Notes under the pieces: model-generated
Told to the model about the DNA's origin: nothing
The model's input: only the letters and a program-made list of their open reading frames with translations
Databases searched by the model: none
Shown: piece by piece, positions 1-7,757 of the stretch
Position numbering within the stretch: position 1 is the stretch's first letter
Layout of the letters: every line of letters begins with the position of its first letter
Made by a program: the position numbers and the translations under genes
Source of the DNA: Escherichia coli
GTDB lineage: Bacteria > Pseudomonadota > Gammaproteobacteria > Enterobacterales > Enterobacteriaceae
Strand: one strand, 5' to 3'
DNA: 64,000 bases
NCBI RefSeq assembly: GCF_024700885.2
Contig: NZ_CP117016.1

Positions 1-1076
1 GGAATATCCCGGCTCCCCAGATCATTCTCCTGTTCGTTCGGGATGTCATCCGGGAAGCCCCGCGTCTGATACCAGCGCAGGTAGACAGCAATTTTATTAC
101 GGTAATGTTCTGCCGTTCTTTCCGGCATCACATCCAGCAGGAACATCGCATAGCTGCGCCAGGTATGATGGGCCGGTTTTGATATACGTTTACGCAGGGC
201 AAAATAGGCACCGCTTTCATTGGCATAAAGCGCCCCGCTGGCAGCGCCTGACACCCGCTCACACATCCTGGCCCAGGTTTCCGGCTCCAGAACATGGTAA
301 AGCCACAGTCCCTTACGTTGTTCAGGACCAAAAGGTTCACAGACACGCATGTTGCGTAACGGTACGCCGGCACGGTACATCAGGTCATACAGGGGATTGT
401 AGATGGCACGGGTTCTGGTGTGATATATCCAGATATCACGAGTTTTCCAGTCATACAGCGGATACATGGTGTAGTAAAACCCTTCAGGCGATGCCGTGGT
501 CCAGGGCTTATCATCGGCGTATCTCAGTTTGCGCTGGGATACCAGTCCCATGAACCGGTTAAGGGACTCATCCGCACGGACACCGGTCAGTACTGCCACA
601 CCACATTTATTGTCTGCAAACCAGGAAGAAAATGCCGGAACAAATTCTTCAAACGTCATGGCATACCGGTAAAAGGGAAAATACGCCATATCTGTAATGG
701 CCCCCTCCGGTGGCTGGCGAACCCACTTCACACCAGACTCCCAGCATATCCACTCCGGCTGAAACTGAGAAACACCGTTTACCGTGGTCAGGGGAAGTGC
801 CACCCAGTAAAAGGTTTCCGTCACATCATGGTACATTTCCCGCATCTTCTGAATATGTTCAATGGTGCACTGGTACTGAGCCTCCCAGTCAATGAACAGT
901 ACAGAGAAACGACGTTTTTTCCTGCGGGCCACATCAGCCAAAAGATGGAAAAGCACGGTGGAATCTTTACCACCGGAAAAAGAGAGACAAACTGATGGAA
1001 ATGTTTCAAAAATCCACTCAATACGAGCAATTGCTGCACGCAGAACATTAGTACAAAGCCAAATTTTGTCTGTCAT
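1..1076 (-). CDS. PAPS-reductase-family PP-loop protein with DUF3440-like C-terminal region (IbrA/YbdN-like); C-terminus runs past window start
   Basis: Minus-strand frame open from ATG (complement of 1074-1076) to position 1; translation MTDKIWLCTNVLRAAIARIEWIFETFPSVCLSFSGGKDSTVLFHLLADVARRKKRRFSVLFIDWEAQ... contains the SGGKDS PP-loop. Absent from ORF track because no stop lies inside the window. Confidence 0.6.
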   Translation of the reverse strand, partial: MTDKIWLCTNVLRAAIARIEWIFETFPSVCLSFSGGKDSTVLFHLLADVARRKKRRFSVLFIDWEAQYQCTIEHIQKMREMYHDVTETFYWVALPLTTVNGVSQFQPEWICWESGVKWVRQPPEGAITDMAYFPFYRYAMTFEEFVPAFSSWFADNKCGVAVLTGVRADESLNRFMGLVSQRKLRYADDKPWTTASPEGFYYTMYPLYDWKTRDIWIYHTRTRAIYNPLYDLMYRAGVPLRNMRVCEPFGPEQRKGLWLYHVLEPETWARMCERVSGAASGALYANESGAYFALRKRISKPAHHTWRSYAMFLLDVMPERTAEHYRNKIAVYLRWYQTRGFPDDIPNEQENDLGSRDI

Positions 1077-1131
1077 TAAATGATCACGCATTACTGAACA
1101 ATATTATCTGCATCCCTTGATATAAAACAAT

Positions 1132-1962
1132 TCATAATTTTTGTATCGAGTTGGCCAACCTTTTTTCATTACCAAATCGAGTTGTGTAATATCTCTCTTC
1201 GATACCATACAGCAAAAGTTTAAGCTCTTCGTCACAAGAAATTTCGAAACAGCCAGTGCCATCATCAAACTTTAATTTTTCAGAGCAATAATCATTTATA
1301 TAAGTTAGCATATTCCCCCTGTCACTTACATCCATTTGGTTTAACGTATCCATCGCTAACGCTATTCTTTTTCTGTTTGGTTTTGAAACATTACATGCTT
1401 TATATTCACCAGAGAGAGCAATAAACGACTCCCCCAGAAACTGTTCAACATCCTGTTCTGTTGCCTCTTTATAAAGAGTATCGATACCATTAAACATGGA
1501 AGAAATGGCTGACAAGGATTTAAATATAAGCGTGTCCTTTGCAGCAAGATATACTGCATCCGGGGTCTGGTTAACAACCAGACGATTCTTCCCGCTCTCT
1601 ATCTTTGCTCTATCACCAAGTTCGATCATTTTTTTCTTGAGATATAATGATGGTGTTACCTTCTGAAAATAAAAGTCACCACTTTGAAATGAAAAAATAA
1701 ATGCTATCTTTGAAAAATATTTTTTAGGCAATTCATCATAATTTTTTGAATCAAACTCATCTTTCAAAAAGGATGGGCAGTATTCCCGTTTACTAAATTC
1801 ACTGAGACTAAACCAGGAATCTTCATCAAGATTATGATCCGGTGCATACGGAACCAATGAACACACTGACAGATCAACCCTTTCAAAAAGGGTATGATCT
1901 GAGACAATCTTAAAATATGGTTTTTTCCTGAGACCTTTTGCTTTAACAAATACATTATCCAT
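1132..1962 (-). CDS. hypothetical cytoplasmic protein, 276 aa, AT-rich gene
   Basis: ORF track 1132..1962; no TM segments; begins 3 bp after the upstream membrane-protein gene; codon usage and AT-richness differ from flanking genes. Confidence 0.5.
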   Translation of the reverse strand: MDNVFVKAKGLRKKPYFKIVSDHTLFERVDLSVCSLVPYAPDHNLDEDSWFSLSEFSKREYCPSFLKDEFDSKNYDELPKKYFSKIAFIFSFQSGDFYFQKVTPSLYLKKKMIELGDRAKIESGKNRLVVNQTPDAVYLAAKDTLIFKSLSAISSMFNGIDTLYKEATEQDVEQFLGESFIALSGEYKACNVSKPNRKRIALAMDTLNQMDVSDRGNMLTYINDYCSEKLKFDDGTGCFEISCDEELKLLLYGIEERYYTTRFGNEKRLANSIQKL

Positions 1963-1964
1963 TC

Positions 1965-2525
1965 TTATTTCCTTTCGATAAAGGTATAGTTATTAATCCT
2001 GAAAGCCATGGGCACTACAATATCTTGCGGTACTTTATACCTATAAGGACTGATAAGAAAAATCGACGCTCCTGTTTTTGTCTTAATATTATAAAACTCA
2101 TACCTGAAAACAAGAAACAAAGGATTGAAATATAAGGCCTGAGATAAAAATGTAAAAATAAACAGCACTCCATAAACAAAGAACAACGCCCCCCAGTTAT
2201 TTATACTCAGGGCAACAAAAAAGTACCCCAGATAACTCGGTAAAAAAGAGTTATTCGCATGCTCAACTGAAATCACCTCACCTTTTTTAAACTCATCTTT
2301 TCCCAGCGCAGCACTAAGCACAAGACTGACTTTAGTCAAAACAACAGGTATTAAAAAATAAAAAAGATACGACCCTACCTGAGGAATACCACTTAACCAC
2401 TGTAAACTCTGTTCATGCTGAAAAAAGTAAAACAACGTATATTTCCTTTGCACCAAAAATATAATTATCAACAAAGAAGTGGCATTGAATGTAAGCAGCA
2501 ATCTAAAAAGGATGTTAATTATCAT
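1965..2525 (-). CDS. hypothetical multi-pass membrane protein, 186 aa
   Basis: ORF track 1965..2525; several hydrophobic stretches (LLIIIFLV, LFYFLIPVVL, FFVALSINNWGALFFVYGVLFIF); AT-rich; tightly coupled to the downstream 276-aa gene. Confidence 0.5.
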   Translation of the reverse strand: MIINILFRLLLTFNATSLLIIIFLVQRKYTLFYFFQHEQSLQWLSGIPQVGSYLFYFLIPVVLTKVSLVLSAALGKDEFKKGEVISVEHANNSFLPSYLGYFFVALSINNWGALFFVYGVLFIFTFLSQALYFNPLFLVFRYEFYNIKTKTGASIFLISPYRYKVPQDIVVPMAFRINNYTFIERK

Positions 2526-2739
2526 GATATCTGGTTCCTGGACATCTAAAAATCATGCGTCATATCACACAATTTGCATTATGAATAACCATAACAATAT
2601 AACTCAGTTATTGCTACCCAAGCCCAGTATTTAAATAACTATACTATCAATGCGTAAGACCACATTAATGCTCCGCTGAAGAAGAGAAGCACTATACTCT
2701 GCAGTGCCTTTAGAAAATTATTCTCCAAAAGATGGAATA

Positions 2740-4107
2740 TCACTTCATGTCCCCTTGCGTCAAAACCCAGTAACGACTCACCAGCTCGACAAGACCATTT
2801 TCCACCTTTTTTTGCTGCTGTTCACTGCTATTCTGGTTACGAACTTCATCATAGCGACGTAACTGCTCTTCTGCCGGGATATGCCGGTTAAAAGCCTGCA
2901 TGATGCCAAACACCTCCGTTTTCAGTTCACTGACCGTCATGTATTTTCCCCGCTGCTCATCCAGACGGTTCAGGCGCTCAGCCAGCTGCTGTAAGCGGGT
3001 CATGCCTTCGTTCCAGCCCGCCATCGCCTCTTCCGGGAGCGCACGACTCCTTACACTCTTCTGCCAGTTATCCACCATTTCCTGAACACGGGGATTGTCG
3101 GGAAAAAGTACCCTCAGTTGCTGCAGCAGCTGCGCACTGCGTTGCAGGTTGTATGCCGGGGGTAGTTCTGCCAGTCGTGTTATCTGCTGACCGGAAAGGG
3201 TTATCCACTCTGACGCATGATTTAGCAGTGAAGGTGTTCTGCTGAGCTGTGTCATCTGGCCTGCTGAAAGCACATCCGGTGGTGGTGTCAGCAACGCCCT
3301 GAGTTGCTGCTCCGCCGGTGATGGCTGTGTCAGAAACTGCCATCCCGGAATGGCCACGCTGACCGCCAGCAATGCCGCACAGACACCAGTTACAAACGGT
3401 TTCAGAAACGTGGGCGGGGATTTCTGAAGGGAATGTGTGTTTTCTTTTCCGCTCTCTGCTTTTGTTTCAGAAACAACATACACCAGACGGGAGTGCGGCA
3501 GGGTCTGATGTTCCTGTACGTCCGGAGCATCAGACCGGAGTGCCTGCGCCGGAAGGGTTACCGGAGACGATACTTCACCCTGCACAGGCTGGTTCTCCAG
3601 GCGGGTGATATATCCCTTCACCATGGCTTCCGGTAAAGCCACTTTACTGCTCTGTTTAAGTTCGTGCCGGGCCAGTGTGTCACTCAGTGCCTTCAGGAAT
3701 GTTTCGGTCTGATACAGCAGGGGCAGGTTGTCACGGTCGTCCGGAGGCATGGCCCGAAGCGTTTTTTGCAGATGGTTGAACAGACCGGTAATAATTTCCA
3801 GCCGGGCGTGGGTATTCAGCGGCCACATCACTGACCAGTGATGCCGGGTCAGCGCCACAATCAGAGCCAGCCCTTCATTCAGACCACTTAACCCTGTTGT
3901 ATGCATCCGGGCGATGGTGTACCAGGATGCCGTCTGTAATTCCACGCCATTGTGTTCATACAGACGCAGGCAGAGTGTTTCCACGTAACGCCAGTCCACA
4001 TCCGGGCGTGCCGGGTGAGTCAGTTTGCTGATTTCATCGCGCAGGGCAGCATAATCCGGTAATGACCGGGGGTCACCACCGGTTTTCAGTTTCACTTCAG
4101 AAGTCAT
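2740..4107 (-). CDS. vasL: T6SS-associated ImpA_N-domain protein (VasL-like)
   Basis: N-terminus MTSEVKLKTGGDPRSLPDYAALRDEISKL... matches the ImpA N-terminal domain pattern; central hydrophobic segment (VTGVCAALLAVSVAIPGW); sits at the end of the T6SS gene string. Confidence 0.6.
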   Translation of the reverse strand: MTSEVKLKTGGDPRSLPDYAALRDEISKLTHPARPDVDWRYVETLCLRLYEHNGVELQTASWYTIARMHTTGLSGLNEGLALIVALTRHHWSVMWPLNTHARLEIITGLFNHLQKTLRAMPPDDRDNLPLLYQTETFLKALSDTLARHELKQSSKVALPEAMVKGYITRLENQPVQGEVSSPVTLPAQALRSDAPDVQEHQTLPHSRLVYVVSETKAESGKENTHSLQKSPPTFLKPFVTGVCAALLAVSVAIPGWQFLTQPSPAEQQLRALLTPPPDVLSAGQMTQLSRTPSLLNHASEWITLSGQQITRLAELPPAYNLQRSAQLLQQLRVLFPDNPRVQEMVDNWQKSVRSRALPEEAMAGWNEGMTRLQQLAERLNRLDEQRGKYMTVSELKTEVFGIMQAFNRHIPAEEQLRRYDEVRNQNSSEQQQKKVENGLVELVSRYWVLTQGDMK

Positions 4108-4161
4108 CGGCAGATTCGGTGTTGCTGTATTAAATCATGATTAACAGTGACGAAAAGAACA

Positions 4162-4470
4162 TCAGTGTGATACCGGTACCCGGGAAAGGTATTCCACCGC
4201 GCGGATAATTGCCGGTGTCACATCCCACCGCCGTTTCAGAACCGGCAACAGCTCATTAAGGTTTCTGATATAACGCTCAGTGAACAGCCGTTGTCCGTCC
4301 CTGGTTAAATGAAAACCTGACTGATTACAGGTAATGGTGATATGACAGGTATCGTTGCCAATATATACGGCTTCCTGGGGTCTGAATCTGACATTCCAGT
4401 ACCAGGAATACGGGGAATGATTAAGATGAAAAAGACGCATCTGAATGTCACTGAATAATGGATTCATCAT
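4162..4470 (-). CDS. hypothetical small protein (~102 aa)
   Basis: ORF track 4162..4572 overlaps the helicase 3' end; internal ATG pair (complement of 4465-4470, MMNPLF...) is the likely start; no clear Shine-Dalgarno. Confidence 0.3.
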   Translation of the reverse strand: MMNPLFSDIQMRLFHLNHSPYSWYWNVRFRPQEAVYIGNDTCHITITCNQSGFHLTRDGQRLFTERYIRNLNELLPVLKRRWDVTPAIIRAVEYLSRVPVSH

Positions 4471-4531
4471 AAATAAAATACACCTGATAATAAAATATAG
4501 TGGAAAACCAGAATAAAGAAATGGTCCGGTA

Positions 4532-6319
<1,788 letters not shown>

Positions 6320-6512: not shown

Positions 6513-7757
6513 TCAGGCAGCTTCATTTTCCGCGTATTCCAGACTCTGCAGGTACTGCAGCGCCGCCGGGTCAGCCACATATTCCACCTGCCCGTGGTGA
6601 CGCTCCACTTCATTAATGATTTTCTCAAGCTTCACGCGGAAAAATTCTTTACGCAGGTTAATCCTGTTAATGCGGTATTTTTCCAGACTGTCATGAAGTG
6701 TTTTTTCCAGCGCAGGCGCATCATCACAGGAAATCATGGCGTGAACATCAAAATCAAACGGAACAGAAGCACCACTTAACTCTTTGACCCTGTCCATGGG
6801 TTCCAGCCGTCGGGTCATGCCAATTTTAAAGACATCCTCACCAAACGAACCAATATTCGAAATGATATAAACATGCCCCTGTTTCGTAAGCTGAGCCATG
6901 GATTTAGCACGTTCATACTGCGCATGCGCTTCCTGAATTTTCTGTTCCAGCTCCAGGCGTTGTTTCTCTAACTCCTCCCTGTGAGCCCCTTCTGCTGCGC
7001 GCAGCGCCTCCTCAATCAGTTTCTGCTGCTCAGCAAGACGCCGTTCTTCCTCTTCCGCTTCCCGCTGGCGCCGTTCAGGTTCATCCTGACGCTCTTTTTC
7101 TTCACGCATCTGACGCTTAAGCTCTGCCTGATATTCCTTCTCTTCCTGCGCTTTTTCCAGCAATGCCACTTTGTCCAGAAACTGTTGCCTGATACTCTCC
7201 CGGTCAGAATTATCTTCCAGGTTAAGAAAGGCTATTTTCTCACTGACAGCAGCGTAAGCCTCTCTTTCCTTACGAAGCTGGTCATATTTGCTTTGCCAGT
7301 TATTAATCGTTACACCAGCCAGCAGAGTCTTCGCCTTAAATTTCCAGGCGGAATCAACAATCCGTTGCATTGCACGGCTGGCCTTCTGTCTGGCGGTATG
7401 AAATTCCTCACGACGTCTGGCCAGTTGCTCCTTTTCCTGTCGTATTCCCCGGGCTATCGCGGCATTGACAGTTTCATTAAAACCCCGCTCTCTCTGAACC
7501 AGCTCTGAAACGGCCTGCTCAAAGGCTGCTGTTTTCTTTCTGAGTCTCCGGTAAATAAAAAAACGAAGTAAAATTGCAAATACAGTAAGCAAACCAAAAA
7601 ACAAACCAATAATACCTGCCGGATTCGATACTGCATCAATAAAGCGCTCATTAAGATTTATCAGCGCCCTGACCGCCACATAAATCCCCCAGAGAATAAC
7701 GCAAACTAAAATCAGGACAAATCCCGCTGCATTATCATCTTTTTTTCCTCCTGCCAT
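6513..7757 (-). CDS. membrane-anchored coiled-coil protein with C-terminal T5orf172/GIY-YIG-like domain (DUF4041-like architecture), 414 aa
   Basis: N-terminal TM helices (FVLILVCVILWGIYV, IIGLFFGLLTVFAILL), long Glu/Arg/Lys-rich coiled-coil region, C-terminal GHVYIISNIGSFGEDVFKIGMTRRLEPMDRVKEL module. Confidence 0.6.
   Translation of the reverse strand: MAGGKKDDNAAGFVLILVCVILWGIYVAVRALINLNERFIDAVSNPAGIIGLFFGLLTVFAILLRFFIYRRLRKKTAAFEQAVSELVQRERGFNETVNAAIARGIRQEKEQLARRREEFHTARQKASRAMQRIVDSAWKFKAKTLLAGVTINNWQSKYDQLRKEREAYAAVSEKIAFLNLEDNSDRESIRQQFLDKVALLEKAQEEKEYQAELKRQMREEKERQDEPERRQREAEEEERRLAEQQKLIEEALRAAEGAHREELEKQRLELEQKIQEAHAQYERAKSMAQLTKQGHVYIISNIGSFGEDVFKIGMTRRLEPMDRVKELSGASVPFDFDVHAMISCDDAPALEKTLHDSLEKYRINRINLRKEFFRVKLEKIINEVERHHGQVEYVADPAALQYLQSLEYAENEAA

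Follow-up and report, generated by a model that had tools for sequence, protein, structure and literature searches.

This work concerns a pair of adjacent genes within a window of 64,000 nucleotides (nt) from an enteroaggregative-type chromosome of Escherichia coli (contig NZ_CP117016.1). On the tests available, namely gene order, matches to KwaA and KwaB profiles, predicted folds, and genomic context, the pair belongs to the Kiwa family. It very probably constitutes a horizontally acquired two-gene anti-phage system of this family from a clade that is remote in sequence from the characterized members. The upstream gene encodes a membrane protein of 186 amino acids (KwaA-like) and the downstream gene a soluble protein of 276 amino acids (KwaB-like). 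The Kiwa systems of E. coli O55:H7, ECOR8, ECOR12, and ECOR49 and the Protein Data Bank (PDB) entries 9mrx, 9mrg, 9mrr, 9mtn, and 9nyu served as characterized references (Zhang, Todeschini et al., PMC11785009).

The first-pass annotation had described two tightly coupled open reading frames (ORFs) on the minus strand, and its coordinates were exact (Table 1). Its spacing of 3 bp needed a trivial correction: the TAA stop codon of the kwaA-like gene (1967-1965) is followed by GA and by the ATG of the kwaB-like gene at 1962, which leaves a spacer of 2 nt. A purine-rich, Shine-Dalgarno-like stretch (AAGGAAA) is located within the 3' end of the kwaA-like gene, which fits translational coupling of the kwaB-like gene. 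The same annotation had called the pair far more AT-rich than both flanks, and this was borne out by GC contents of 0.339 (186-aa gene), 0.351 (276-aa gene), and 0.35 (214-nt upstream spacer) vs. 0.545 for the vasL/tssA-like gene, 0.503 for the 3'-phosphoadenosine-5'-phosphosulfate (PAPS) reductase gene, and 0.51 for the window. The low-GC block covers 1.7 kb (GC 0.34-0.35, flanks 0.50-0.55), and the GC content at third codon positions was 0.31-0.37 in the pair vs. 0.58 in vasL. This AT-rich block exceeds chance, and comparison with an ST131 genome makes the boundaries of the cassette exact. At its two ends, the cassette reaches ~14 codons into the neighboring genes, at the start of the PAPS-reductase gene and at the end of vasL. 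The pair presumably has its own promoter in the 214-nt spacer; a promoter scan of 2526-2739 returned no consensus sigma-70 site above chance, and a terminator-like hairpin (2709-2687) lies within the spacer just past the vasL stop codon.

The division into a membrane and a soluble protein, also part of the first-pass annotation, agreed with hydropathy and structure prediction. For the 186-aa protein, Kyte-Doolittle averages over 19 residues peaked at 2.0-2.15, and the AlphaFold2 (AF2) model contains four long helices (residues 2-26, 49-72, 91-107, and 111-128), with a predicted cytoplasmic beta-strand region formed by the loop between transmembrane segments (TM) 2 and 3 and the C-terminus. This predicted topology of four TM helices plus beta strands from an intracellular loop and the C-terminus agrees with that published for KwaA (PMC11785009). 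Among the profiles of PADLOC-DB, six KwaA models and no other model matched the protein (best E-values 3e-10 and 7e-10), the 7e-10 model aligning residues 4-184 of 186 with profile positions 3-170 of 173. In a Foldseek search of the PDB with the AF2 model, solved Kiwa chains were the sole meaningful neighbors. Furthermore, the newest RefSeq records name the identical protein WP_000586175.1 'KwaA family protein'. Many of the 186-aa homologs (among the best 120 listed) have a precomputed match to the Pfam family PF28043 (KwaA), although the near-identical cluster P0121 does not; a direct Pfam scan of the 186-aa protein, with a library that did not contain PF28043, gave no match. NCBIfam held no match to either protein.

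The 276-aa protein (RefSeq WP_000370895.1) has no hydrophobic segment (Kyte-Doolittle maximum 1.0) and no TM segment. In PADLOC-DB it matched four KwaB models only (PDLC00222, PDLC00229, PDLC00225, and PDLC00234), of which PDLC00222 aligned residues 36-273 with profile positions 46-288 of 292 (E 2.4e-12); these PADLOC models are described as 'DUF4868 domain'. The AF2 model, made from an alignment of 27 sequences (predicted local distance difference test, pLDDT, 73.6), shows an N-terminal alpha/beta (Rossmann-like) domain and a C-terminal helical domain. All of the top six Foldseek neighbors in the PDB were KwaB chains (9mrx_D, 9nyu_A, and four chains of 9mtn), with E-values of 3.2e-5 to 9.9e-4, TM-scores of 0.54-0.59, and a probability of 1.00. 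The best of them was 9mrx_D (E 3.2e-5, TM-score 0.59), and the first match other than KwaB had an E-value of 0.26. The alignment also revealed a basic motif, K194-P-N-R-K-R199, where the C-terminal helical domain begins. K194, P195, N196, and R197 were invariant and K198 and R199 were conserved in at least 90% of the 27 sequences; among 57 diverse representatives, N196 and R197 were still conserved in at least 90%. This motif is a plausible candidate for a DNA-contact element.

Homologs of the two proteins were found in nearly equal numbers (1531 vs. 1528 clusters at 90% identity), so the clade comprises ~1,500 such clusters. A profile search of 1.84 billion representative sequences returned 647 KwaB-like representatives (50% identity) at E ≤ 1e-3; the best 150 of these 647 were mostly ~270-285 aa long, with about a dozen shorter fragments. 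The family is spread over Vibrio, Shewanella, Yersinia, Proteus, Photorhabdus, Arsenophonus, Marinobacter, Neisseria, lactobacilli, and others, and a tblastn search of 50,697 phage genomes found no relatives. Ten other KwaB-like members, 31-58% identical to the 276-aa protein, matched exclusively KwaB models of PADLOC (E 2e-4 to 5e-18, nine of the ten at 2e-9 or better). Similarly, divergent E. coli alleles matched Kiwa models only. In many NCBI records, including those of E. coli M3 and AH19B041 and of homologs in other taxa, the KwaB-like protein goes by 'ATP F0F1 synthase synthase'. The name has no meaning and has spread by propagation; neither the profile nor the fold results support it, and a literature search on it returned nothing relevant. 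A 298-aa protein encoded on a 4.2-kb ColE1-type plasmid of Shigella flexneri is 21.5% identical to the KwaB-like protein (E 5e-7) and could represent a highly divergent relative of KwaB that occurs on its own. As it had no kwaA-like neighbor, no PADLOC match, and no match among PDB sequences, it was dropped as a bridge to Kiwa.

In every genomic context examined (the window and ten others), the kwaA-like gene lies directly 5' of the kwaB-like gene. The two are separated by 2 or 5 nt (Arsenophonus and Proteus; Marinospirillum) or overlap by 4-26 nt (Yersinia and Vibrio). In Marinobacter, the kwaA ORF is present, even though the gene caller missed it. A type I restriction-modification (R-M) operon was located directly upstream, on the same strand, in 9 of the 11 independent contexts: the Vibrio harveyi group, Yersinia, Arsenophonus, E. 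coli MEW, V. cyclitrophicus, Shewanella colwelliana, Proteus vulgaris, Marinospirillum, and E. coli 2022CK-00450 (leuX island). Both the hsdR-M-S and the hsdM-S-R order occur upstream of kwaAB. In E. coli MEW, whose allele is common to ~83 E. coli genomes, the kwaA start codon abuts the hsdR stop codon. The two contexts with no adjacent type I R-M operon are Marinobacter and the window locus, where the pair is detached from such an operon. The R-M-linked sites are usually found within integrase-bounded islands; a tyrosine integrase was present within ~5 kb in six contexts and within ~8 kb in a seventh, and DarT-Macro genes occurred in two. Co-localization of the homologs with defense-related genes, which the first-pass annotation had proposed as a test of its Kiwa-like reading, was thus observed with type I R-M, DarT-Macro, and integrases. 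Homology to a housekeeping family or to an accessory family of the type VI secretion system (T6SS) was also looked for in both proteins and was not found. Literature searches for a linkage of Kiwa to type I R-M and for Kiwa in enteroaggregative E. coli (EAEC) returned nothing relevant among the papers covered.

Within E. coli, the window DNA matches strain MLI114 at 100% identity and strains 042 and 55989 at 99.9%. The Sci-1 T6SS cluster (tle1/tli1) and the AAI cluster (aaiC) enclose a variable segment of ~15 kb that contains the pair, whose allele is found at this site in only 21-32 of 5,426 complete E. coli genomes, with 99.9% identity across ~19 unrelated isolates. When positions 1-4300 of the window were compared with the ST131 genome by local blastn, the homology stopped at 1049 and restarted at 2782. 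The ST131 site is occupied by a different 967-bp cassette, also with a GC content of 0.34, so the kwaAB pair is swappable foreign cargo at a hotspot. The single gene of that cassette encodes a 214-aa protein, annotated as hypothetical and with no PADLOC match, which is a candidate defense gene at the cassette-swapping site. In strain OkiPb01677, an allele of 93% identity occupies the same site as in the window; both genes of the pair are intact there, and the PAPS-reductase gene has decayed. Between the window pair and this allele, the ratio of nonsynonymous to synonymous substitution rates (dN/dS) was 0.059 for the kwaA-like and 0.141 for the kwaB-like gene, which indicates that the pair is maintained by selection. 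Both ORFs of the window are intact and retain all family-invariant residues.

Several findings weigh against the assignment to Kiwa. The PADLOC scores were only 38-45 bits, a level typical of remote homology, from which it follows that no PADLOC model was built from the clade of the window. Searches of all PDB sequences with phmmer and with hmmsearch family profiles found no Kiwa chain at E ≤ 10, although KwaA and KwaB chains were part of the target set; the queries were both proteins, three family profiles, and the member with the best PADLOC match (P0382). Since the family profiles retrieved no solved Kiwa chain by sequence, the clade has to be regarded as a remote one. Identities in the structural alignments with solved Kiwa proteins were only 9-19%, the AF2 models were of moderate confidence (pLDDT 74 and 77), and the Foldseek E-value for the KwaA-like model was weak (0.025). 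With 276 vs. 315 aa, the KwaB-like protein falls ~40 residues short of solved KwaB. The first-pass annotation had named DUF4868 as a family to look for in it: hmmscan gave no match of the 276-aa protein to PF16162 (KwaB, formerly DUF4868), and none of its 120 closest homologs carried precomputed Pfam domains. PF16162 did match 4 of the 57 diverse KwaB-like representatives at E ≤ 1e-3 and 8 of the 57 at E ≤ 0.1 (best 9.7e-7), so that, by sequence, the DUF4868 link of the 276-aa protein is transitive only. Additionally, no phage experiment with any member of the clade was found. Finally, the linkage to type I R-M is nearly obligate elsewhere, and activity could need a partner that is absent from this locus. 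The Kiwa-like architecture suggested by the first-pass annotation is nevertheless supported by Kiwa-only matches in PADLOC, Kiwa folds for both models, and the RefSeq name of the KwaA-like protein.

The linkage to restriction genes can be read in two further ways. In one, the proteins are Kiwa homologs that serve as an accessory of type I R-M instead of acting autonomously, for example by holding or marking incoming DNA for HsdR at the point of entry, or by regulating restriction; the window copy would then be an orphan with reduced or altered activity. The position directly downstream of hsdR, hsdM, and hsdS on the same strand, irrespective of the order of the hsd genes, and the abutting genes of E. 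coli MEW fit such a role. However, unrelated defense genes are also known to insert preferentially at type I R-M loci, so linkage need not mean dependence. Moreover, with no hsd operon beside it, the pair has stayed intact and under purifying selection both in Marinobacter and in the window lineage. Characterized Kiwa works as two genes alone (PMC11785009), and such an accessory role is quite improbable. In the other, the clade with a 'short KwaB' of ~277 aa is a functionally distinct subtype of Kiwa that arose in partnership with type I restriction enzymes, which we consider rather unlikely. If it were so, KwaB may retain DNA at the membrane entry site for the slow, translocating HsdR, or it may instead cover phages that evade restriction; the window copy would be an orphan showing that the module can work alone too.

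An association with type VI secretion, as an accessory or as an effector-immunity pair with the membrane protein providing immunity, is suggested by the location, in which the pair directly follows a vasL/tssA-like gene and is flanked by the Sci-1 and AAI clusters, and small membrane proteins commonly serve as T6SS immunity proteins. The homologs do not share this setting: no T6SS genes were present within 7-8 kb in the nine contexts outside T6SS islands (among them Vibrio, Yersinia, Shewanella, Proteus, Marinospirillum, Marinobacter, and other E. coli loci), for which reason this explanation was removed, and the secretion genes near the Arsenophonus pair are of type III, not type VI. The GC content of the pair (0.34 vs. 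0.55 for the T6SS genes), homology to Kiwa profiles and folds only, and the unrelated cassette in ST131 point in the same direction, and a T6SS role was rejected as extremely improbable. It is also very unlikely that the pair is inert, decaying cargo of horizontal origin. The surroundings are indeed rich in pseudogenes and insertion sequence remnants, and no consensus promoter was detected in the upstream spacer, but the ORFs are intact, the invariant residues are kept, dN/dS is low (0.06 and 0.14), and ~19 isolates share 99.9% identity. In OkiPb01677 it was the neighboring PAPS-reductase gene that decayed and not the pair, and the remnant reading was rejected on dN/dS and context.

For the preferred assignment to Kiwa, the characterized system offers a mechanistic template. 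KwaA forms a membrane tetramer, whose cytoplasmic beta-barrel, built from intracellular loop 1 (ICL1) and the C-terminus, docks KwaB dimers to give a fence-like KwaA4-KwaB2 supercomplex (PMC11785009). The complex localizes to where phages attach and reacts when DNA ejection or conjugation perturbs the membrane; KwaB then binds DNA non-specifically via a basic channel, without cleavage, and stalls replication forks and late transcription (PMC11785009). Protected cells survive, lambda Gam inhibits KwaB, and both genes are needed, and suffice, for protection against phages and conjugation (PMC11785009). By analogy, the 186-aa protein would form an inner-membrane oligomer with four TM helices per subunit and a small cytoplasmic beta-barrel, which would dock dimers of the 276-aa protein. 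Phage attachment, DNA ejection, or conjugation would perturb the membrane at this complex, whereupon the KwaB-like protein would bind the incoming DNA without cutting it, so that replication and late gene expression would stall and the infected cell would survive. Complex formation, trigger, DNA binding, and anti-phage phenotype of the window pair are all transferred from the characterized system in this scheme; the chance that the mechanistic details carry over unchanged to so remote a clade is roughly even.

The features of the locus and of the related loci mentioned are compiled in Table 1.

Table 1. Features of the kwaAB-like locus, its neighbors, and related loci. Positions refer to the window unless another locus is named.
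Feature	Position	Strand	Description
kwaA-like gene	1965..2525	-	186-aa ORF, ATG start; predicted four-helix inner-membrane protein
kwaB-like gene	1132..1962	-	276-aa ORF, ATG start; soluble, predicted DNA-binding effector
AT-rich spacer upstream of kwaA	2526..2739	-	214 nt, GC 0.35; presumed promoter and ribosome-binding site
Variable low-GC cassette	1050..2781		kwaA, kwaB, both flanking spacers, ends of both neighboring genes
PAPS-reductase-like gene	1-1091	-	IbrA-like, directly downstream of the pair
vasL/tssA-like ORF	2740-4107	-	455 aa, intact; ImpA/TssA-like N-terminus, VasL-like C-terminus
Small ORF	4162-4572	-	136 aa from GTG (RefSeq version 101 aa); between the NERD-UvrD gene and vasL
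NERD and UvrD-like helicase gene	4532-6319	-	595 aa; PADLOC candidate C3a187, 1e-139, full length
PD-Lambda-1 match	6513-7757	-	414 aa; PADLOC 5e-88
Genes beyond the PAPS-reductase gene	L001 8929-12192		IbrB-like (ParB-like) gene, PerC, two hypotheticals
ST131 alternative cassette	L002 4050-5016		967 bp, GC 0.34
ST131 cassette gene	L002 4232-4876	-	214 aa, hypothetical
Marinobacter adhaerens genes upstream of kwaAB	L003 4436-7346	+	adenylosuccinate-synthetase-like, DUF7002, and 191-aa P-loop (GxxxxGKS) proteins
Shigella flexneri plasmid gene	L010 155-1051	+	298 aa, divergent KwaB similarity

The description of the pair as lying downstream of vasL in the first-pass annotation is correct for the 455-aa ORF, which RefSeq splits into three pseudogene fragments, including a ShlB/POTRA fragment. 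Its ImpA/TssA-like N-terminus matched TIGR03362 at 1e-22, below the cut-off, and the ORF appears to be either an orphan T6SS gene of chimeric make-up or an artefact of annotation. The adjacent small ORF had no match in PADLOC or NCBIfam; it is kept beside the ImpA_N remnant even in strains without the NERD-UvrD insert, such as OkiPb01677. The NERD-UvrD protein is named '3'-5' exonuclease' in RefSeq. Its gene and the next one are absent from OkiPb01677, which indicates that they were inserted between the vasL remnant and tssE. The neighboring PD-Lambda-1 match, related to a known single-gene defense system, has a TM region at the N-terminus and a GIY-YIG domain at the C-terminus, along with a long charged coiled-coil. 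On the other side of the pair, the PAPS-reductase-like protein showed weak matches to BrxP (2.4e-7) and DndC (2.6e-4), and more than 2,300 E. coli genomes, those of O157 strains among them, as well as some plasmids carry its gene. In M. adhaerens, NYN/OST-HTH and NERD genes are also located near kwaAB, and the three-gene set upstream of the pair looks like further defense-island cargo.

As the PADLOC models and the newest RefSeq naming already find the pair, its membership in Kiwa lies within known reach. Mildly new are the large Kiwa clade that the Pfam KwaB model largely misses, and the strong linkage of this clade to type I R-M, which provides a lead on cooperation between defense systems. 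The assignment gives a predicted defense function to genes that are 'hypothetical' in most RefSeq records of E. coli, including those of EAEC 042 and 55989. With Kiwa, PD-Lambda-1, the NERD-UvrD candidate, and a cassette-swapping hotspot, the stretch that separates the two T6SS clusters of EAEC forms a small defense island. Otherwise, the pair is an expected instance of a known system from a little-studied branch.

Three known systems were compared with the pair. Zorya is a defense system in which ZorAB forms a membrane-embedded sensor component, and the general logic of a membrane sensor combined with a cytoplasmic, nucleic-acid-directed effector at the site of phage entry is alike; no relationship in sequence or fold was found, however, and the PADLOC matches of the pair were exclusively to Kiwa models. 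PrrC and RloC are examples of defense cargo carried within type I R-M (hsd) loci or attached to them. Similarly, most members of the window clade directly follow hsd genes on the same strand, in integrase-bounded islands, but their proteins are unrelated to PrrC and RloC and the window copy is not beside an hsd operon. Kiwa itself was reportedly characterized by Doron et al. in 2018. The window pair differs from the characterized Kiwa systems in that no pairwise or profile-to-sequence similarity to the solved proteins was detectable, in its shorter KwaB-like protein (276 vs. 315 aa), which PF16162 misses, and in the predominant attachment of its clade to type I R-M operons. It shares with them the two-gene operon of kwaA followed by kwaB, a KwaA ~185-195 aa in length whose four TM helices are accompanied by a cytoplasmic beta region, and a soluble KwaB with an alpha/beta N-terminal and a helical C-terminal part, both recovered by PADLOC and fold search. 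Like Kiwa, it is horizontally mobile and located in defense islands.

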